A DNA stretch of 64,000 nt from Bacteroidota bacterium (GTDB lineage Bacteria; Bacteroidota; Bacteroidia; Chitinophagales; Chitinophagaceae), in contig JAEZDR010000064.1 in assembly GCA_023433265.1 (NCBI GenBank), forward strand, positions 65 to 64,064. The letters run 5' to 3'. Under the pieces are notes generated by a model. The model was not told the origin of the DNA and searched no databases. It was given only the letters and a program-made list of their open reading frames with translations. Below are positions 1 to 15,219 of the stretch, piece by piece. The translations under genes were made by a program, and so were the position numbers. The stretch's first letter is position 1, and each line of letters starts with the position of its first letter.

Positions 1-761
1 CCCGCATCTGCCGGTAAGGGCAGGCTATCTAAAGCATAGACGCTAACATCGTCCATGTAGTAGGCAGCACCATGGTAGCCCCCGGTGGGATTTACATTTA
101 AATATTGTGTTTGGTTGTCCCATTTAAAGTTGCCCAGAGTCAAATATTGTTCTCTTCCCTCTGCTACAAATACCCCGCTCACTTTTACCCAACCGAGTGT
201 ATCAGTGATAATGGGATTGCCAAAATTTGCTATTTGAGGAGTAGCCGGAAAAACCCCCAGGTTAGCTGCGGTATCTACATATACCTGTGTATCAGTAAAC
301 AGCATTGCGTGATTGTTGCAGGCATATACCATATGATTAATTCTATTTACGAAATACTCAGCATAATAGCATTTGTCTTTTTTTAAACTATCAAGAAGCT
401 TTACCGCGACGTAATTCCGGTGGTTTGTTCCGGGGCTATTCATATAGAAACTCGTCATATATGCGACACCGCTTTTTGCGTATTGAAAGCCTGGACCTGC
501 TACAGTGTAATGGAAAGGCACCCCAAGAGTTCCACTATCTGAGCAAGCGTTGCAATAGTTAGCTTGTCTTTTATCGGGCTTATACCAAACATTTGGACGA
601 TTATCATTGCCAAAAAATGGACAAACTGTATATTCTTCAAAACTTGGATTTGGTACAAGGTTAAAGTTTATCGTTTGGCAAAAACCGATATTCGAGCAAA
701 CAAGGCAAAGCAGGGGTAATAACCCCCGCTTTGCCAATAGAGTTTTTATGCCGTTAAACAT
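1..761 (-). CDS. Secreted protein, N-terminal part only (gene runs off the left edge); signal peptide plus NLVPNPSFEE-type sugar-binding-like domain
   Basis: This gene is absent from the ORF track because no stop codon lies inside the window. Manual reverse translation from the ATG at 761-759 gives MFNGIKTLLAKRGLLPLLCLVCSNIGFCQTINFNLVPNPSFEEYTVCPFFGNDNRPNVWYKPD... and stays open to position 1 (253 codons plus 2 nt). It has a hydrophobic signal peptide. Confidence 0.55.
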   Translation of the reverse strand, partial: MFNGIKTLLAKRGLLPLLCLVCSNIGFCQTINFNLVPNPSFEEYTVCPFFGNDNRPNVWYKPDKRQANYCNACSDSGTLGVPFHYTVAGPGFQYAKSGVAYMTSFYMNSPGTNHRNYVAVKLLDSLKKDKCYYAEYFVNRINHMVYACNNHAMLFTDTQVYVDTAANLGVFPATPQIANFGNPIITDTLGWVKVSGVFVAEGREQYLTLGNFKWDNQTQYLNVNPTGGYHGAAYYMDDVSVYALDSLPLPADA

Positions 762-768
762 TGCAAAA

Positions 769-1416
769 CTATTCAATAATCAATTTTTCAGTCTCTGTTC
801 TTCCATCCCTTGAAACAACCGTTACTAAATAAATGCCTCTGGGAAGTCTTGAAATGTCTATTTGTGCTAAGGCTGTTCCACCAAAAAGCTGGCTAACTTG
901 TCCTCTACCCAGAATATCAACTATAGTTACCTTTCTAATTCCACTGCCACTTATAAACACACTACTGCTAGCAGGATTAGGATAGATTTTTGTTATTCGA
1001 GCTTCCGTATTCTCATCAGAGGGTTTCTTAGGTTGTTTCAGCCTAGTAAATCCTTTGCTACTTTCAGACTCGCCTTCACACTTACCATCAAATTCGTTGA
1101 TTCTTTCAGTAAGTGCATTATAAAGATTGCGAACTGAATAAACCACACTGCCATAAACTTCCGGGCACTGATTAGCCAGCTCTCTGACCTCTTCCAGTTC
1201 AGGTCTATATTCTGGATCGTCGTGCATTTGGAGGAGCCAATCAAAATACTTCCTGAAGCTCTCATCCCCGCGTCCCCAGCCCTTGTCGTCTTTATTAAAG
1301 CTGGTATCCAGCATTCCAGCCTGGCCAAATGTTGTACTTGAAAAACACAAAGAGATGATAGTGTATAGGCATACTAGAACACTATGTTTCCCGGAAAGCT
1401 TAATAGCAGTTTCCAT
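769..1416 (-). CDS. Small secreted T9SS cargo protein (type A C-terminal sorting domain)
   Basis: The ORF spans 769..1485. The likely start is the internal ATG at 1416 (METAIKLSGKHSVLVCLYTIISLCFSSTTFGQ signal peptide). The C-terminus KIYPNPASSSVFISGSG...GIYLVTVVSRDGRTETEKLIIE matches the Por secretion tail pattern. The mature N-terminus AGMLDTSFN echoes the delta-60 genes next door. Confidence 0.6.
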   Translation of the reverse strand: METAIKLSGKHSVLVCLYTIISLCFSSTTFGQAGMLDTSFNKDDKGWGRGDESFRKYFDWLLQMHDDPEYRPELEEVRELANQCPEVYGSVVYSVRNLYNALTERINEFDGKCEGESESSKGFTRLKQPKKPSDENTEARITKIYPNPASSSVFISGSGIRKVTIVDILGRGQVSQLFGGTALAQIDISRLPRGIYLVTVVSRDGRTETEKLIIE

Positions 1417-1470
1417 AAACAGAGTTTGGTGTGGTAAACCTTGAAGGTACCGGTATGCCCGTTGTAAGAA

Positions 1471-1488
1471 TATGACAAAAGTCATTTA
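1471..1488. promoter_or_regulatory. Palindromic operator candidate TATGACAAAAGTCATTTA (core ATGAC-N4-GTCAT)
   Basis: It is a perfect 5+5 inverted repeat, 56-69 nt upstream of the probable start of the 769..1416 gene. It matches the copy at 1677..1694 at 17 of 18 positions. Confidence 0.45.
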
Positions 1489-1676
1489 TGAGTCAATCAA
1501 TGTAATCCACAAAGAGTGGCCTTTAATAAGACACTAAGCGTGCCGTATGATAAGTTGTCCTTTACCCTAGTAATACCGCCTAATAAAAATCCCGGGCTTT
1601 CACCAGGGGCTTCACTATCATAAAAGAGACTTACTCTCCCACAATCTCAAAGCTTTGACTAATTATGCTGTCCGTT

Positions 1677-1694
1677 TATGACGAAAGTCATTTA
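1677..1694. promoter_or_regulatory. Palindromic operator candidate TATGACGAAAGTCATTTA
   Basis: The core ATGACGAAAGTCAT (1678-1691) lies at -64..-51 from the ATG at 1742. It sits 22 nt upstream of the -7-like box TAGTTTCG (1714-1721). Confidence 0.45.
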
Positions 1695-1741
1695 ATGAAT
1701 GATGATCTGGAAATAGTTTCGTAGCACTTGAATTAAGTCGA

Positions 1742-4189
1742 ATGCAACTAACTGCCAAACGTTACCCAACTATCATTGCTGTTTTCGCAGTCATCTTTCT
1801 ATTGACAACATCAAAAACAGTTGCTCAGCCAGGTTTTTTAGATCCTACGTTCAATATCCAAGACAGCGTTGTTGCGAAAGGATTCGACAACCTTGTGAGA
1901 TGTTGCGTTAAACAACCAGATGGCAAATTGCTTGTTGGAGGATATTTCACCAACGTACACGGTGTTAAACGAACATGCATTGCCCGGCTTAATGCTGATG
2001 GGTCTTTAGACCATAGTTTCAAAGACGTTGAATTTAAGAATCCCGGGTACAACTATGGAGCATCAGGACAAATCTATTGTATCGCAATTCAAGCAGACGG
2101 TAAAATTGTTATCGGTGGCGCATTCGACTATGTAGCGGGTATGTTTAGGAAAAACATAGCTAGATTACTACCTAATGGTGATATTGATTCGTTTTTTAAT
2201 TCAGGAACTGGTTTCAACAAAACAGTACTCACTTTAGCTTGCCAGGCCGACGGAAAAATAATTGCCGGCGGAAGTTTTACTAGCTTCAATTCCTTTCCAG
2301 TAGGAAGGATTGCGCGGTTAAACACAGACGGTTCCCTTGAAATTCCTTTTAATACAGGTGTCGGTGCGAATAACAATGTGCAATCAATCTTAATTGACAG
2401 CATCGGACGAATTTATGTCACGGGATCCTTCAGTAACTTTAACAGCATAAGCACCGGAGTTGTTCGCCTATTATCCAATGGAGTGATTGATGGGTCTTAC
2501 AATGTCTCGGTATCAGGGCCTATTGCTTTCTCAGTGCTTAAGCCAACAGGAAAACTAATTTTAGCTGGGTCTGGTGTGCAAAGCGGTACAAAAAAGTACA
2601 TCATTCAACTTGATACAACTGGAGCTGTTGATGCATCTTTTACGTCTCCTGTAAATGTCTGGTCAAATATCTGGAATTTATTGGCCTTAAACGGCAACAA
2701 ATCAGCAGTACTCGGCTCTTTTCCTAAAAACATCATCGTTTTTAATGATAATGGAACAATAGATTCTGCTTTTAATGTGTTGGAAAGCTTTGATTTTTAC
2801 GACATAAAACGGCTACACACATCATGTGATTTAGGGGGAGGTAAACTTTTTGTTGCTGGTGATTTTTCAAGCTATGGAAACCGCAATGCTCAACAATTCG
2901 CTGTTTTTAATAACGACGGTAGCATAGATCAAGACTTTATAAGCCCTGCGTTTGGGCTGAACGAATCCAGTGATCAAGTCACTATCTCACTAGGTCAGCA
3001 AATTTTGGTGTCCGGAGAGTTTAACTTCTACAATCAAAGTAAAAGAAAGTTTTTTGCACGCCTACAACAGAATGGCGATGTTGACACTTTATTTAATTCT
3101 TCCACGGGGCCGAACGCGAAAGTGTCATCGTTAGCAGTCCAGCCCGATGGAAAAGTCATTATTGGAGGCAATTTCTCGCAGATTGATGGTAAAGCTGCAA
3201 AGAACATAGCAAGATTTTACAGCGACGGTTCGTTAGATTCAACGTTCAATCCAACAAATAACATCAGTACCAGTGTTTTCCGCATGGCGTTACAGCAGGA
3301 CGGCAAGATTATAATAGGTAATAACCTCAACGGCTTTATGCGACTTCTGCCAAATGGAAGTGTTGATGCATCCTTCAATTATACTGTTTCGGCTGGGTCT
3401 TCTCTGTATACACAAATAGGGATGCACCAAAATGGAAAGATTATCGTCGCAGGATATTTTTCGTCTTTAGGGGGTTCAACAAGACCTGGTATAGGACGGT
3501 TGAATGTAGACGGAAGTTTAGACAATACATTTAATCCGGTTATAAATGGAAACGCTGTAAGGTGTTTTGCTGTTCAGCCTAATAACAAAATCATCATTGG
3601 TGGCGAATTTACTTCTGTAGGGGGATTCCAACGAAACTCTGTAGCACGGCTCAATTGGGACGGAAGCAATGATTCAACCTTCAATTCAGTGTTTGCGTAT
3701 GGCACAACTATCAACTCAATTTTAGTTCAACCAACTGGTCACATTATCGTAGCTTATGGAAAAGTTGAAGGTGATAATTTTTTCCAAATAGTGCGACTTG
3801 ACAGCTCTGGCAATTACGATTATTCTTTCAACCCGGTAAAGTGCAACGGCACCATTATGCAGATGGCTCTTGACTCACACAGCATAATCGCGGTTGGACG
3901 ATTTTCTTCTATTAACAACACCGTCCGCAACAACATTGCGAAAATCCAGGCGCAGGTATATACCCCCAATTATACATTCAACGGCAATGGGAGTTGGAAT
4001 GATCCTGCTAACTGGCTAGGTGGCCAAATACCTACCAATCCCATTCCTGTAGGTACTGTCGTATTGGTGAATCCTTCAACAGGTGGTAGCTGCACCTTCA
4101 ACGGATCGCTAACTATAAGCTCGGGTGCCACGTTGCTCATCCCTCCAAATGTAAACTTCACCGTTAACGGAAACATTATTTACTTATAG
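1742..4189 (+). CDS. Delta-60-repeat beta-propeller surface protein, paralog 1 (815 aa)
   Basis: The ORF is complete and has a signal peptide (IIAVFAVIFLLTTSKTVAQ). It carries about 12 repeats of a roughly 58-aa unit with the DGKxxxGGxF...ARLxxDGSLDxxFN motif. It ends in the conserved ~75-aa tail YTFNGNGSW...NGNIIYL. Confidence 0.85.
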   Translation: MQLTAKRYPTIIAVFAVIFLLTTSKTVAQPGFLDPTFNIQDSVVAKGFDNLVRCCVKQPDGKLLVGGYFTNVHGVKRTCIARLNADGSLDHSFKDVEFKNPGYNYGASGQIYCIAIQADGKIVIGGAFDYVAGMFRKNIARLLPNGDIDSFFNSGTGFNKTVLTLACQADGKIIAGGSFTSFNSFPVGRIARLNTDGSLEIPFNTGVGANNNVQSILIDSIGRIYVTGSFSNFNSISTGVVRLLSNGVIDGSYNVSVSGPIAFSVLKPTGKLILAGSGVQSGTKKYIIQLDTTGAVDASFTSPVNVWSNIWNLLALNGNKSAVLGSFPKNIIVFNDNGTIDSAFNVLESFDFYDIKRLHTSCDLGGGKLFVAGDFSSYGNRNAQQFAVFNNDGSIDQDFISPAFGLNESSDQVTISLGQQILVSGEFNFYNQSKRKFFARLQQNGDVDTLFNSSTGPNAKVSSLAVQPDGKVIIGGNFSQIDGKAAKNIARFYSDGSLDSTFNPTNNISTSVFRMALQQDGKIIIGNNLNGFMRLLPNGSVDASFNYTVSAGSSLYTQIGMHQNGKIIVAGYFSSLGGSTRPGIGRLNVDGSLDNTFNPVINGNAVRCFAVQPNNKIIIGGEFTSVGGFQRNSVARLNWDGSNDSTFNSVFAYGTTINSILVQPTGHIIVAYGKVEGDNFFQIVRLDSSGNYDYSFNPVKCNGTIMQMALDSHSIIAVGRFSSINNTVRNNIAKIQAQVYTPNYTFNGNGSWNDPANWLGGQIPTNPIPVGTVVLVNPSTGGSCTFNGSLTISSGATLLIPPNVNFTVNGNIIYL

Positions 4190-4201
4190 TACAGTAACAA
4201 A

Positions 4202-4225
4202 AACCCCGGCGCGATGGCCGGGGTT
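4202..4225. terminator. Copy of the rplI terminator hairpin (AACCCCGGC-GCGAT-GCCGGGGTT)
   Basis: The stem-loop is identical to the one at 9511-9531. Further copies lie at about 4380-4401 (one mismatch) and at 6951-6974. The A-run on the plus strand means the T-run is on the minus strand, which is the rplI orientation. Confidence 0.7.
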
Positions 4226-4246
4226 CAGTATTCTCTGAGAGAAGGT

Positions 4247-4369
4247 TTATTCACCTACTACTTCAAACTCCATCTCAGTAACGTTGTTGTTACCAAAGTC
4301 GATGTTTGCTTTGTAAGTGCCTAGTTCTTTTACTTCGTCTACAATGCTTATACGCTTTCGGTTAATCTC
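4247..4369 (-). pseudogene. rplI: Relic of the 3' end of rplI (last 40 codons plus stop)
   Basis: The reverse translation is EINRKRISIVDEVKELGTYKANIDFGNNNVTEMEFEVVGE*. The genuine RplI C-terminus (9554-9676) reads EIDRKRISIVDEVKELGTYKANIDFGNNNVTEMEFEVVGE*. There are 9 nt differences in 123 nt. No upstream coding part is present. Confidence 0.9.
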
Positions 4370-4467
4370 TTAAACGAAAAACCCCGGCGCGATGGTCGGG
4401 GTCAGTATTCTCGGAAAGAAGGTTTATTCACCCACTACTTCAAACGCAGTTTAACTACAGAAAGCAG

Positions 4468-4481
4468 ATGATCAATATCAT
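4468..4481. promoter_or_regulatory. Palindromic operator candidate ATGATCAATATCAT
   Basis: It is a perfect palindrome at -65..-52 from the ATG at 4533. It sits 22 nt upstream of TAGCTTCG (4504-4511). Confidence 0.45.
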
Positions 4482-4532
4482 GTGTTCAGCGAAATATAGC
4501 AAATAGCTTCGTAACACCTGAAAATTTCAAAA

Positions 4533-6938
4533 ATGCTAGCTGCTAAACGTTTCCAAATTATTATACTTTTCACCACAGTTCTTTTTTTGGTTGGTATTGC
4601 TGTTGGTGCTCAACCAGGGTTTGTTGATCCAAGCTTCAATCTTCATGATACGATTTCTGCAAAAGGAACAAATGGATCAGCACGTTGTATTATCAAACAA
4701 CCTGACGGTAAAGTGATCGTAGGAGGTATGTTCTACATCGCAGATGGCGCAAAAAAATTTGGTCTTTTTCGGCTGAACACAGACGGTACGCTCGATGATG
4801 GCTTCAACGTTGATTTTCGGCAGAATAATAACAACTTTCATTACACGGTGTATTGCGGGGCAATTCAACCAGATGGCAAAATAGTCATTGGAGGCGCTTT
4901 TCAAAACATACATGGTTTCCCCCGTCAAAACATTGCGAGACTGCTAACGGATGGCAGTATTGACACATCCTTCGATCCCGGGGCAGTCTTCGGTAGTTAC
5001 GTGTCTGCTATTTCTATTCAACAAGATGGTAAAATAATTGCTGGAGGCTCTTTTAACCAGTTCAATTCTTCACCTGTTAATTATTTGGCTAGATTGAATA
5101 CCAATGGGTCATTAGACATCCTGTTTAGTGCAGGTGGAGGGTTTAATAACAGGGTTAATTCTGTTGCAACCGACGCTACGGGCAGAATTTACGTATCTGG
5201 AGAATTCAATAAATACAGGAGCGTCACTTGTAAAACGCTTGTAAGACTTCTTCCAACCGGCATATTGGATTCTACTTATACTCCGTCATTAGGCGGAGGC
5301 GCATTGTTGCTGCAACCTGACGGAAAGTTGTTGGCTGCTTCACTTGAAAGCAGTCTGCGCAGGTTCAATGAAGATGGGAGCGACGATATAACATTTTTAG
5401 CATCTCCAACCTCCAGTGGTAAAATCAACCACATATCATTTTTGCAAGGAGGCAAAATAGCAATAGCAGGTTCTTTCCTTGAAAAGGTGCTAGTGCTAAA
5501 TGTAAACGGCAACAAAGATGCAGCCTTCAATTTATCCGCGAGCTTCAACGGACCTGTTTTTGCCTGCTGTAGCTTTGGTGTCGACAAACTGCTTGTCGTC
5601 GGGGATTTCACGAGCTATGGCAATAAGAGTTACAGTAGAGTAGCAACAGTGGGTTATAATGGTGAAATCGACTCAACCTTCTCGAACAATGCGCGCGGCT
5701 TTAGCGAACAAGTAGTTACGGTAGCCTTGACTTCAGATAAACGACTGGTCGCAGCAGGAGACTTCAACTTTTATGATCAAAAACACGTGGGTTACCTTGC
5801 CAGATTACATGCTGATGGTCTGCCGGATTCAAGCTTTAATTCTATAATAGGAGCAGATGATCGGATAGCTGGGATAGCGTTACAGCCAGACGGCAAAATT
5901 TTGCTAGGTGGATCGTTCTCTAAATACAATGGAATAGATGCGAAAAATGTTTCGAGATTGTTCAATAACGGTTTAAACGATGGTAGTTTTAATCCGCCCA
6001 CTAATCTAGGTTCAAACATTAGAAGCATTGCAGTGCAGCCAGACGGTAAAATTCTCCTTCTGAGCGTAACGACCAAAGAAATTATACGGCTGCAACCGAA
6101 TGGTAGTATCGACGCTTCTTTCGCATTCCCTACATCACCCTCTAGCTACAAAGTTTTACTGCAGGCAGGGTTACAGCCCGATGGAAAAATTATCATTTGC
6201 GGGTCACTTAGTTCAATTGGAGGAATTACAAGAAGTGGGATCGCCAGACTAAACTCTAATGGCTCGTTAGATAACAGCTTCAATGTAACAGTACAAGGCG
6301 ACGAGGTTCGAAGTTTTCTACTGCGGCCTGATGGCAAAATATATATTCTAGGCAAATTTTCGTCAGTGAATGGAGTGGCTAGCAACGGCTTAGCACGACT
6401 TCACAGTGATGGAACCCTTGATACAACTTTTGAGGCCGCGTTAACGCCTGGCACTATTGTAAGTGCAGCCGTTTGGCACATGGGCTATCTATATTCTACT
6501 TCGTTACTAGATGGGGATCCGGATTATATCACAAAGCTTGTTCGTATGGACAGCACAGGAAATCTGGACTATACTTTCAACCTGGTTAAGATTACCGGCA
6601 TGGTATGGCAACTTTTACCAGACAGCGCACACCTATACGTGGCAGGAAGCTTTACCCGAGTCAATAATACAGTTCGCAACAACATCGCAAAGATTCAAGC
6701 GCAGGTTTACACGCCTAACTATACTTTCAACGGCACTGGCAGCTGGAGCAATTCTGCTAATTGGCTTGGCGGACAAATACCCCCTAATCCCGTTCCGGCA
6801 GGTAGTGTGGTATTGGTGAATCCTTCAACAGGTGGTAGCTGTACCTTCAATGGAGCGCTAACTATAAGCTCGGGTGCCACGTTACTCATCCCTCCAAACG
6901 TAAACTTCATCGTTAACGGAAACATCATTTACCTATAG
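4533..6938 (+). CDS. Delta-60-repeat beta-propeller surface protein, paralog 2 (801 aa)
   Basis: The ORF is complete, has a signal peptide and is collinear with paralog 1. It has the same C-terminal module. Confidence 0.85.
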   Translation: MLAAKRFQIIILFTTVLFLVGIAVGAQPGFVDPSFNLHDTISAKGTNGSARCIIKQPDGKVIVGGMFYIADGAKKFGLFRLNTDGTLDDGFNVDFRQNNNNFHYTVYCGAIQPDGKIVIGGAFQNIHGFPRQNIARLLTDGSIDTSFDPGAVFGSYVSAISIQQDGKIIAGGSFNQFNSSPVNYLARLNTNGSLDILFSAGGGFNNRVNSVATDATGRIYVSGEFNKYRSVTCKTLVRLLPTGILDSTYTPSLGGGALLLQPDGKLLAASLESSLRRFNEDGSDDITFLASPTSSGKINHISFLQGGKIAIAGSFLEKVLVLNVNGNKDAAFNLSASFNGPVFACCSFGVDKLLVVGDFTSYGNKSYSRVATVGYNGEIDSTFSNNARGFSEQVVTVALTSDKRLVAAGDFNFYDQKHVGYLARLHADGLPDSSFNSIIGADDRIAGIALQPDGKILLGGSFSKYNGIDAKNVSRLFNNGLNDGSFNPPTNLGSNIRSIAVQPDGKILLLSVTTKEIIRLQPNGSIDASFAFPTSPSSYKVLLQAGLQPDGKIIICGSLSSIGGITRSGIARLNSNGSLDNSFNVTVQGDEVRSFLLRPDGKIYILGKFSSVNGVASNGLARLHSDGTLDTTFEAALTPGTIVSAAVWHMGYLYSTSLLDGDPDYITKLVRMDSTGNLDYTFNLVKITGMVWQLLPDSAHLYVAGSFTRVNNTVRNNIAKIQAQVYTPNYTFNGTGSWSNSANWLGGQIPPNPVPAGSVVLVNPSTGGSCTFNGALTISSGATLLIPPNVNFIVNGNIIYL

Positions 6939-6950
6939 AAGAGTAACAAA

Positions 6951-6974
6951 AACCCCGGCGCGATGGCCGGGGTT
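6951..6974. terminator. Copy of the rplI terminator hairpin
   Basis: The sequence is AACCCCGGCGCGATGGCCGGGGTT. It is followed by a 20-nt rplI-end relic, ATTCACCTACTACTTCAAAC, at 6995-7014. Confidence 0.65.
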
Positions 6975-7035
6975 CAGTATTCTATGAGAGGAGGATTCAC
7001 CTACTACTTCAAACCTGTTTAACTACAGAAAGCCA

Positions 7036-7049
7036 ATGATCAATATCAT
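7036..7049. promoter_or_regulatory. Palindromic operator candidate ATGATCAATATCAT
   Basis: It is identical to the copy at 4468-4481 and lies at -65..-52 from the ATG at 7101. Confidence 0.45.
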
Positions 7050-7071
7050 GTCTTCAACCAAACACAGCAAA

Positions 7072-7079
7072 TAGCTTTG
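7072..7079 (+). promoter_or_regulatory. Bacteroidota -7 promoter box TAGCTTTG
   Basis: It is a perfect match to the TAnnTTTG consensus, 22 nt upstream of the ATG at 7101. Confidence 0.45.
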
Positions 7080-7100: not shown

Positions 7101-9497
7101 ATGCTAGTCGCCAACCGTTACAAAATTATTGGAGTTGTTACTGCAATATTCTTGATGCTGACCATTTCGGTTGCAGCTCAGCCGGGTTTGGTGGATGCAG
7201 CTTTTAACCTCAAAGATGTTGTGAAGCCTAAAGGCTTTAATGCTCCAGTTATGTGCAGTGTAACGCAACCTGATGGCAAGGTCTTACTCGGAGGTTTTTT
7301 CTTCATTGCGGATGGCACAAAGAAGCTTGGAATTGCAAGACTAAACATTGATGGCAGCTTAGATAATGGTTTCAACGTAGATTTTCGCCTACCGGAATAC
7401 TCTTCAACTGCATGGGCAGTTTACTCTATGGCTTTACAAGCTGATGGAAAGATTGTAATTGGTGGGCAATTCAGCAATATAGGTGGACTATCCAGGAATA
7501 ACATTGCGCGTTTGCTCCCAAATGGTGATGTTGACTCATCTTTCAATCCCGGGTCGGGATTCAACTCGACTCTCCTCACAGTTAAGTGCCAAAATGACGG
7601 CAAAGTAGTTGCCGGCGGCTTCTTTACCACCTTCAATTCCATTGCGGCGAGTGGATTAGTCCGGCTAAAACATGATGGCTCATTTGACGATACTTTTTCA
7701 ACTACCGGGTGGGGCTCAGGCTCAGTAAGAGCAATCGAAATTAGCACTGATGGTAAAATATATGTGGGAGGCTTCCAATTGAAAAGATTGCTTGCAAATG
7801 GTGAAGTTGATGCTTCTTTCACTTCAGGTTTTACTAAAAGTGTCCAGGCACTGCAACTTCAACAGGATGGTAAACTACTTGTAGGTAGTAACACAATAAG
7901 CGCCGGAACTAACAGTCTTGCCAGGCTAATGCCAGGCGGTAGCATTGACGGCTCTTTCAACCCACCGGTAATTGACGGCACCACCAACCATTTTCAGATC
8001 CTACCGGCAAACAAAATACTTGTCCTGGGATCTTTTGCAGAAAAAGCAATGATCTTAAATGACGACGGAAGTAAGGATGCTGCCTTTGCGATTGCCGCAA
8101 ACTCTACATATAACCAGAAGTTTTCAACTAGCAGCCTTTTTGGAGGTAAGCTACTACTAGCAGGTGACGTTACTTTTTACGCGTCATACGACACCAAAAG
8201 AATAGCGCTTTTTGACTTCAATGGCGTATTAGATTCAGTTTTCCTGAATCCTGCTCTTGGCATCAATCACGCCAGCAGCAACATTGTTGTTCAAACGGAT
8301 CAGAAGGTGCTTATTGCAGGACAGTTCAACTTCTATAACGGCAACCGCAGGAACTTCCTGGCCAGGCTTCATTCTAATGGTGAGCTTGATTCATCGTTTG
8401 CTCCAGGAACTGGTGCAGATTACTTTGTAAACGGTTGAGCACTTCAGCCCGACGGGAAGATTATCATCTCCGGTGCCTTTTCGAAGTATAATGGATTGGT
8501 GTCCAACCAAATTCAACGGTTAGATAGCAGCGGGCTCTTGGACGCAACGTTTAGTGCACCAACGGGGCTTGGCTCGGGAATAAACTGTATTGCTGTTCAA
8601 CCAGACGGAAAGATCGTAATAGCAACTGTGGACAATAAGAAAATTATACGGCTTATGCCGAATGGCAGCACTGACAACTCTTTTAATTCTCCCTCGTCAT
8701 CAAACTTTGTTAGCCTGGAAAGTCTCCAACTTCAACCGGACGGCAAGATAATAGTGGGTGGATCACTTACCAGTTTGGGAGGAGCGGCCAGGACCGGAAT
8801 CGGCCGCCTGAACACAGATGGCACCGTTGATAATGCGTTTAACCCAACGCTAAACGGCACTCATGTTAAAACATTTTGCATCAATGCTGATGGCAAAATT
8901 GTTATTGCGGGGCGCTTCTCTCAGGTAAACGGAGGGGGCAGAAACAGTATTGCGAGACTGAATAGCAATGGTAGCCTCGATACAACATTCAGCTCCCCTT
9001 TTTCTGAAGGCACCGCCATCTATGCAATGCTTCAGCAAACAGGCGGCAAATTGCTTGTCGTATATCAAGATCAAACTGTAGCCAATCTTTCCAGAATGAT
9101 TCGATTGAATACAGACGGCAAACCAGATTATACATTCACTCCTGTATTGTTTGACGGCATACCGCTGTCGCTTGCTTCAGATTCTACAAATGTTTATGCG
9201 ATAGGATCATTTTCCAGGGTCAACACTACTGTCCGCAACAACATCACAAAGATTCAAGCGCAGGTTTACACGCCTACCTATACTTTCAACGGCACTGGCA
9301 ATTGGAGCGATTCTGCTAATTGGCTTGGCGGACAAATACCACCTAATCCCGTTCCAGCAGGTAGTGTGGTATTGGTGAATCCTTCAACAGGTGGTAGCTG
9401 TACCTTCAATGGATCGCTAACAATAAGCCCGGGTGCCACGCTATTAATTCCTCCAAACGTAAACTTCACCGTTAACGGAAACATTATTTACTTATAG
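7101..9497 (+). pseudogene. Delta-60-repeat beta-propeller protein, paralog 3, interrupted by a single in-frame TGA at 8436-8438
   Basis: ORFs 7101..8438 and 8496..9497 are in the same frame. The translation reads ...GADYFVNG*ALQPDGKIIISGAFSKYNGL... and aligns across the stop with paralog 2 (...DRIAGIALQPDGKILLGGSFSKYNGI...). Read through, it would be 798 codons, compared with 801 and 815 aa for the paralogs. Only the first fragment has a signal peptide. Confidence 0.8.
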
Positions 9498-9510
9498 AAC
9501 AATAACAAAA

Positions 9511-9531
9511 ACCCCGGCGCGATGGCCGGGG
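9511..9531 (-). terminator. Intrinsic terminator of the rpsF-rpsR-rplI operon (also closes the convergent delta-60 gene)
   Basis: The hairpin is CCCCGGC-GCGAT-GCCGGGG. On the minus strand it is followed by TTTTTG, 20 nt after the rplI stop. Confidence 0.75.
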
Positions 9532-9553
9532 CTTCACTATCATAAAAGAGAAC

Positions 9554-14817: not shown

Positions 14818-15219
14818 ATGTACGGATACAAATTGAAGATGATCCGCGAACTAAGAAACTTGTCACAAGAATACATTGCCGAACAATGTTGCATTAAGCA
14901 GAATACATATTCCAAAATAGAAAGAGACGAGCAAAAGCTAACCGCTGAAATGTTGGACAAGTTATCTAGGGCATTAGGTGTTTCTCCGATGGATATCATG
15001 AATCAAGAGCCAACCCTTATTTCTTTCAATACGAAAAATGATACGTTAGCTGATAAACAGGAAAACAATACAAAGTTTGAATCTCATCTCTTGAAAGAAC
15101 TCGAGTTTAAGAATGCAGAAATTATGAGGTTGGAGCAGATACTACACCAATTGGTTGAAAACTGCCCAATTTGTGCGACAGCACTCGGAGCAAATGCTAT
15201 AGTCAAAAGCAAGTCGTAA
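14818..15219 (+). CDS. XRE-family helix-turn-helix transcriptional regulator
   Basis: The N-terminus KLKMIRELRNLSQEYIAEQCCIKQNTYSKIERDEQKLTAEMLDKLSRALGVSPMDI fits an HTH_3 pattern. It is divergent from the lipoprotein gene at 13667..14734. Confidence 0.75.
   Translation: MYGYKLKMIRELRNLSQEYIAEQCCIKQNTYSKIERDEQKLTAEMLDKLSRALGVSPMDIMNQEPTLISFNTKNDTLADKQENNTKFESHLLKELEFKNAEIMRLEQILHQLVENCPICATALGANAIVKSKS

Follow-up and report, generated by a model that had tools for sequence, protein, structure and literature searches.

The TGA-N6-TCA core is the hallmark of DNA boxes recognised by Crp/Fnr-family transcription factors, and ompW, usp, the cco/fix genes and the nos genes are targets of FNR, FixK or Dnr. 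The promoters read with sigma-A in Bacteroides and Flavobacterium reportedly consist of a TTTG element at position -33 and a TAnnTTTG element at position -7. We know of no function or expression cue for the delta-60 (DUF5122) propeller proteins, which are common in Bacteroidota and in many other phyla. The closest described systems are the class II FNR promoters of E. coli and Aliivibrio, with TTGAT-N4-ATCAA at -41.5 (structures 5cvr and 5e44), and the Anr box of Pseudomonas, for which one report names hemN as a core target (PMC6588701). Here we describe four palindromes in a 64,000-nt stretch of DNA from a Bacteroidota bacterium of the family Chitinophagaceae (assembly GCA_023433265.1, contig JAEZDR010000064.1, positions 65 to 64,064 of the forward strand; hereafter, the window). 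They precede three tandem delta-60 genes and a divergent operon of genes encoding cargo of the type IX secretion system (T9SS). Judging by their sequence, all four are very probably sites of the Crp/Fnr-family type, and we set at about 0.55 the probability that they serve an FNR-like regulator whose signal is low oxygen or nitric oxide (NO).

The pattern ATGAYNNNNRTCAT (ATGAY-N4-RTCAT) has exactly four matches in the window. Box 1, ATGACAAAAGTCAT (1472–1485), is assigned to the promoter of the minus-strand T9SS cargo operon. Box 2, ATGACGAAAGTCAT (1678–1691), box 3, ATGATCAATATCAT (4468–4481), and box 4, again ATGATCAATATCAT (7036–7049), are assigned by the pattern match and by alignment to delta-60 copies 1, 2 and 3, respectively. 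In dinucleotide shuffles 0.23 matches are expected, and none of 100 shuffles reached four; this comparison overstates the independence of the sites, since the three plus-strand boxes are homologous. If one mismatch is allowed, 11 variants are observed (the four exact sites included) and 7.6 are expected, that is, the count is at the chance level, and the non-exact ones are located elsewhere. The first-pass annotation had reported these four perfect palindromes, and the exact pattern search returned the same set with no additions.

All four promoters, when anchored at the palindrome, share one layout: the palindrome, 22 nt, an element of the form TA(G/C)(T/C)TT(C/T)(G/A), then 20–25 nt and ATG. 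On the plus strand the element is TAGTTTCG for copy 1 (1714–1721, a conserved block in the upstream alignment), TAGCTTCG for copy 2 (4504–4511) and TAGCTTTG for copy 3 (7072–7079), with 20–21 nt left to the start codons at 1742, 4533 and 7101. The claim of the first-pass annotation that these three palindromes lie exactly 22 nt upstream of their -7 boxes is thereby confirmed. It had missed that the minus-strand T9SS site has the same geometry: 22 nt separate box 1 from the -7-like box TACCTTCA (1442–1449, minus strand), and another 25 nt lead to the ATG at 1416. Words of the form TA..TT[CT][AG] occupy a fraction of only 0.0011 of the window positions, and therefore the fourth site belongs to a promoter built like the other three. 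TAGCTTTG matches TAnnTTTG perfectly; a single mismatch is seen in each of TAGCTTCG and TAGTTTCG, and two are seen in TACCTTCA.

The -33 TTTG, expected some 19 nt ahead of the -7 element, is absent from all four promoters, the three bases at its place being ATT, TTA, GTG and GTC. This is consistent with activator dependence. The palindrome ends 3 nt upstream of the position where the TTTG would begin, and the distance between the palindrome centre and the TA of the -7 element is 7 + 22 + 0.5 = 29.5 nt.

The delta-60 copies arose via tandem duplication, copies 2 and 3 being recent duplicates, and the upstream regions of all three genes can be aligned, because every duplication unit brought its promoter along. 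A MAFFT alignment of these regions, made without anchoring at the motif, shows islands of conservation only at the half-sites and at the -7 box. Eight of ten half-site positions are identical between copy 1 and copies 2/3, compared with 25–28 of 76 positions of the flanks, box centre, spacer and leader, which is near random (Fisher p 0.006–0.012). The T9SS promoter and that of copy 1 coincide at all ten half-site positions and in the spacing, while their flanks are identical at the random level (15 of 76 positions); as the T9SS site was found through the pattern itself, only its spacing and its -7 box count as independent evidence. Two perfect sites, boxes 1 and 2, are situated in one 325-bp intergenic region at equal spacing to a -7-like box. 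In the direct orientation they are identical at 17 of 18 nt (TATGACRAAAGTCATTTA), a similarity that suggests local copying from one divergent promoter to the other. Next to them, 3 nt past box 1, the segment ATGAGTCAATCAAT (1488–1501) holds a 7-bp palindrome TGAGTCA and a TGA-N5-TCA near-box.

The same arrangement recurs elsewhere. Metagenome contigs were scanned for ATGAYNNNNRTCAT-N{21,23}-TAGYTTYG, which yielded at least 120 loci. A match was assigned to a promoter context if it lay outside a long open frame and an ATG-started open reading frame (ORF) of at least 80 aa began 5–60 nt after the -7 box. Among the matches listed, to which the counts and genes in this and the next paragraph refer, 5, 24 and 3 matches in the promoter context have the spacing of 21, 22 and 23 nt, respectively, whereas outside it the distribution is flat (27, 30 and 31). 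The preference for 22 nt in the promoter context has a Fisher p-value of 7e-5 and a binomial p-value of 2e-6. At this spacing, the box is found upstream of genes for HemN (oxygen-independent coproporphyrinogen oxidase) in four loci, three of which were scanned, all three scoring above the TIGR00538 cut-off. It also precedes genes for OmpW, PPK2 and a RIC-like di-iron/hemerythrin protein (two loci each), NosL, rhodanese, DoxX, PAPS reductase, a thioredoxin-fold protein, a MobA-like transferase and an ADP-forming acyl-CoA synthetase. Two genes of CcoI/FixI-type P-type ATPases are seen at the spacing of 21 nt, and genes for a universal stress protein (Usp) and an FNR-like regulator at the spacing of 23 nt.

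The regulator encoded behind the box in locus L184 (5054–5815) has cysteines at positions 3, 6, 12 and 104 (Cys3, Cys6, Cys12, Cys104), that is, the CX2CX5C...C pattern of FNR, and from residue 2 onwards it can be aligned with the FNR structures 5cvr and 5e44. A second cNMP/Crp-type gene, in locus L200, is likewise preceded by the box. Both regulators have E-x-x-I-R, placed by eye, where the recognition helix of E. coli FNR has E-T-I-S-R, and this difference could be connected with a half-site that reads ATGA and not TTGA. The 14-mer of box 1 is found, letter-identical, upstream of PPK2 and rhodanese genes in loci L094 and L097. Pairs of related genes (hemN, PPK2, RIC-like, OmpW) agree in the half-sites and in the spacing but differ in the box centre and the spacer sequence. 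Several proteins encoded behind the box have no match in Pfam or NCBIfam (L105, L131 (spacing 21), L152, L110 (spacing 22)), and the proteins of this kind include a conserved membrane protein of roughly 400 aa from two soil contigs; all of them are candidate members of a low-oxygen regulon.

How well do the window sites agree with an FNR-like class II arrangement? Each of the four is an inverted repeat of 14 bp (5+4+5) with the TGA-N6-TCA core. The strict E. coli consensus TTGAT-N4-ATCAA is not followed, as the outer bases are A...T in all four sites and the inner ones are C/G in two of them; hence we are dealing with an FNR-like variant and not with the enterobacterial consensus. The class II distance (the box centre at about -41.5, that is, 29.5 nt from the TA) is observed at all four promoters, as measured to the predicted -7 box. 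In other contigs, among the matches listed, the box stands before canonical regulon genes and before genes of regulators. Since the same box at the same spacing precedes low-oxygen and NO genes elsewhere, the boxes are best read as FNR-like activator sites, and for a class II box of this type the likely signal is low oxygen or NO.

We infer protein binding, and activation rather than repression, along the following lines. A dimeric regulator of the Crp/Fnr family would bind the boxes in the class II activator position on Bacteroidota sigma-A promoters. With the -33 TTTG missing from all four promoters, the dimer, once bound, would replace the -33 contact and recruit RNA polymerase to a transcription start predicted from the -7 box. 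Under low oxygen or NO, the presumed signal, an FNR-like sensor, presumably encoded in this genome, would co-induce the three delta-60 transcription units and the divergent three-gene T9SS cargo operon. The 13 putative products scanned and the Pfam-annotated gene calls of L081, a longer ENA contig, include no Crp/Fnr regulator, and the first-pass statement that no regulator gene lies beside the array holds for these 13 products. Every tandem delta-60 duplication brought the box and the -7 element along. The first-pass annotation had proposed that a dimeric regulator, bound at or next to the -33 region, co-controls the delta-60 and T9SS genes through these palindromes; the shared architecture, the conserved islands and the recurrence of the box before regulator genes and genes of Crp/Fnr regulons argue for that proposal, at the level of sequence comparison.

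Several considerations weigh against the FNR-like reading. The predicted transcription start and, with it, the activator geometry rest on the predicted -7 box. The half-sites begin with ATGA, that is, with A at the place of the first T in the E. coli consensus TTGAT. Bacteroidota have many Crp/Fnr paralogs with TGA-N6-TCA-like boxes, and therefore the signal could be that of another paralog. In 80 distant DUF5122 loci (681 kb) the box was found in none, the exact 14-mer occurring once, as a chance match in a coding region; a combination of the relaxed core and the -7 box is absent from the same 80 loci. None of the 32 promoter-context metagenome matches listed precedes a delta-60 or a T9SS cargo gene. 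Finally, the metagenome set was collected with a demand for a strong -7 box, its contigs carry no taxon, and the gene starts in it were assigned by a crude ORF rule.

The main rival keeps the family and changes the signal: the boxes may be bound by a Bacteroidota Crp/Fnr paralog sensing a carbon source, a cyclic nucleotide, sulfide or stress, with the delta-60 and T9SS genes making up a small regulon of their own. We consider this rather unlikely, although not negligible. The TGA-N6-TCA core is common to the entire family, and the metagenome matches listed include genes with no obvious tie to oxygen, such as those for PPK2, CysH, rhodanese, MFS and YkuD. The lack of delta-60 and T9SS genes among these matches and the lack of the box in the 80 distant DUF5122 loci would also fit a private regulon. 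On the other hand, the 14-mer class at exactly 22 nt is dominated, among the matches listed, by hemN, ccoI, ompW, nosL, RIC, usp and fnr-type genes, and box 1 of the window is equal, letter for letter, to boxes of the metagenome set.

It is improbable that the palindromes are operators of an unrelated dimeric regulator, namely a repressor of the XRE, TetR or LacI type that overlaps the -33 region and acts by occlusion. A site adjoining the -33 region does fit repression as well, and the only DNA-binding protein encoded within about 10 kb of the array is of the XRE type (14818–15219, about 7 kb away). However, the lack of the -33 TTTG in four promoters out of four is typical of activator-dependent promoters, a spacing to the -7 box that is fixed to the base pair across unrelated genes would be needless for a repressor, and Crp/Fnr genes themselves stand behind the box.

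Still less credit is due to the possibility that the palindromes are mere relics of a single ancestral promoter, multiplied through tandem and inverted duplication, and have no present binding function. The three delta-60 upstream regions are indeed homologous, the N-terminus of the T9SS gene product resembles the delta-60 N-termini, so that its 5' region may be an inverted paralog, and the 17-of-18 identity of boxes 1 and 2 in the direct orientation points the same way. Yet the T9SS promoter and that of copy 1 still agree at each of the ten half-site positions and in the exact spacing, amid flanks that have decayed to about random identity, and the same architecture is found in unrelated genomes. 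Hairpins, either as a structure of the RNA leader or as a DNA recombination signal for the array, are hardly credible: each palindrome can form a 5-bp stem (-1.7 to -5.9 kcal/mol), and positions 5 and 10 change jointly between copy 1 and copies 2/3, but the stems are weak, one of them is not distinguishable from shuffles, the sites, being upstream of the predicted -7 box, are not expected in the transcript, and the metagenome matches listed show all four combinations at positions 5/10, C/A mispairs in 6 of 24 included, which fits a protein site with Y/R degeneracy and not a hairpin. An ECF-sigma promoter was rejected as well, because copy 1 and copies 2/3 have no -35-like block in common.

Coming back to the FNR-like activator sites, the lack of delta-60 and T9SS genes among the metagenome matches listed, together with the 80 DUF5122 loci having no box, means that the predicted wiring is lineage-specific. 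Tentatively, and with more doubt than assurance, we suggest that a Chitinophagaceae lineage has wired an array of secreted delta-60 beta-propellers, amplifying in tandem, and a T9SS operon into an FNR-like hypoxia/NO regulon, with an activator box in each duplication unit. In the nearest relatives, as defined by ribosomal protein L9 (91% identity), a gene for DAHP synthase is situated beside rplI and there is no array; the named matches, at 85–88% identity, are Chitinophagaceae, and the family placement of this uncultured bacterium in the analysis is based on this L9 similarity. The collections contain no orthologous promoters suitable for footprinting, the best non-paralogous delta-60 relative being 35–38% identical. 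A search for sequencing runs, RNA or DNA, holding the locus found none, and a literature search found no publication describing this box in Bacteroidota.

Domain models agree with the gene identities given by the first-pass annotation, that is, three DUF5122/delta-60 proteins and a minus-strand T9SS type A cargo protein. The latter is the product of the first gene of the operon (769–1416, minus strand); it is 215 aa long and carries both a signal peptide and a sorting domain of T9SS type A (Por_Secre_tail / TIGR04183). Behind it are two genes for 501-aa T9SS cargo paralogs: the second gene of the operon (1–761, minus strand; type A by TIGR04183, with the gene calls of L081) extends beyond the window, and the third one is seen in L081. 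The sorting domain (TIGR04183 / PF18962) is present in all three proteins, and in the 501-aa paralogs this tail is the sole recognised domain. The two paralogous genes, situated within 905–3922 of L081, share a long, near-identical internal DNA segment (about 1140–1640 and 2650–3150), which points to a recent duplication or gene conversion.

The delta-60 genes are all on the plus strand. Copy 1 (1742–4189) encodes a propeller protein of 815 aa (PF17164, E-value 2e-107; TIGR02608), copy 2 (4533–6938) one of 801 aa, and copy 3 spans 7101–9497. The PF17164 / TIGR02608 repeats are recognised in all three with E-values from 2e-107 to 3e-42, copy 3 having been scanned in two pieces, whereas none of the T9SS C-terminal domain models of types A, B and C matches the delta-60 proteins. 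Copy 3 is broken by an in-frame TGA (8436–8438). After it the frame is intact up to 9497, and the read-through product aligns at full length with copies 1 and 2, being 51% identical to copy 2; the gene may recently have become a pseudogene, or the TGA may be a variant from assembly or sequencing, or it may be recoded. Over the last ~100 residues of the delta-60 proteins (6630–6935 in copy 2, and the counterparts in copies 1 and 3), copies 1 and 2 are 83% identical, compared with 47–51% for the propeller bodies, and this C-terminal module is mostly invariant in all three copies. In a search against 5.8 billion proteins its sole match was a weak one, at 46% identity to a portion of an M23-peptidase protein. 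We may be dealing with an undescribed module for anchoring or sorting, kept uniform through gene conversion.

The junctions of the array retain traces of the adjacent rplI gene: at each of them the hairpin of the rplI terminator recurs, together with a relic of the gene's 3' end. The terminator copy at 6950–6975 (minus strand), followed by the relic, is located just upstream of box 4 and forms the left edge of the duplicated promoter unit. Other terminator copies, in the minus-strand orientation, are at 1591–1607, 4201–4226 and about 4380–4405, and the original is at 9508–9535. The junction between copies 1 and 2 contains two terminator copies and a relic of ~110 nt (4261–4372) nearly identical to the true rplI end, while the copy before the first delta-60 gene is older and more diverged. 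As the relic ends about 22–27 nt upstream of each palindrome, each duplication unit carried only about 90 bp of promoter. The MAFFT alignment hinted that the palindrome itself might be derived from the rplI coding relic; this was rejected, as the local alignments were no better than those of shuffles.

An FNR-type box before every copy of the array and before the neighbouring T9SS operon leads to the prediction that the cells make these proteins when oxygen is low or NO is present, for instance, in biofilm or sediment life. If true, this would give the widespread DUF5122/delta-60 family a first physiological cue, namely low oxygen. A portable promoter of roughly 90 bp with its own activator box would then let the array expand and yet stay co-regulated. 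More generally, the locus adds to a picture in which FNR-like boxes of class II would stand, in Bacteroidota, at a constant 22 nt from an unusual -7 element.

Compared with the class II FNR promoters of E. coli and Aliivibrio and with the Pseudomonas Anr box, the four sites have the same 14-bp 5+4+5 inverted repeat with the TGA-N6-TCA core, and the FNR core TGAT-N4-ATCA is present in the boxes of delta-60 copies 2 and 3. The 29.5 nt between the box centre and the TA equal the distance from an FNR or CRP site at -41.5 to the TA of the -10 hexamer, an equality that we derive from the known promoter geometry. Another trait shared with FNR class II promoters is a weak or missing upstream promoter element. 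The differences are ATGA...TCAT in place of TTGA...TCAA, the degenerate inner base (Y/R), the Bacteroidota promoter of the -33/-7 type with a different sigma-A, and the targets, which are secreted repeat proteins and not respiratory genes. Of the elements of the Bacteroides/Flavobacterium sigma-A promoter, the four promoters share the -7 element and not the -33 TTTG.

The boxes of FixK/FixK2 and Dnr/NnrR (TTGA-N6-TCAA, in alpha- and gamma-proteobacteria) are alike in the core and in the class II placement. The FixK and Dnr regulons mix low-oxygen genes (hemN, fixNOQP/fixGHIS) with genes of nitrogen-oxide metabolism (nos, nor), and so do the genes behind the box in the metagenome, with the CcoI/FixI-type ATPase, NosL and the RIC-like protein. 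These regulators have no Fe-S sensors and act below two-component or NO-sensing cascades; the boxes described here are compatible with either type of regulator and do not discriminate between them. The proposed mechanism, that of the class II promoters of FNR, Anr and FixK, is of a known kind, and what is new is the target genes.

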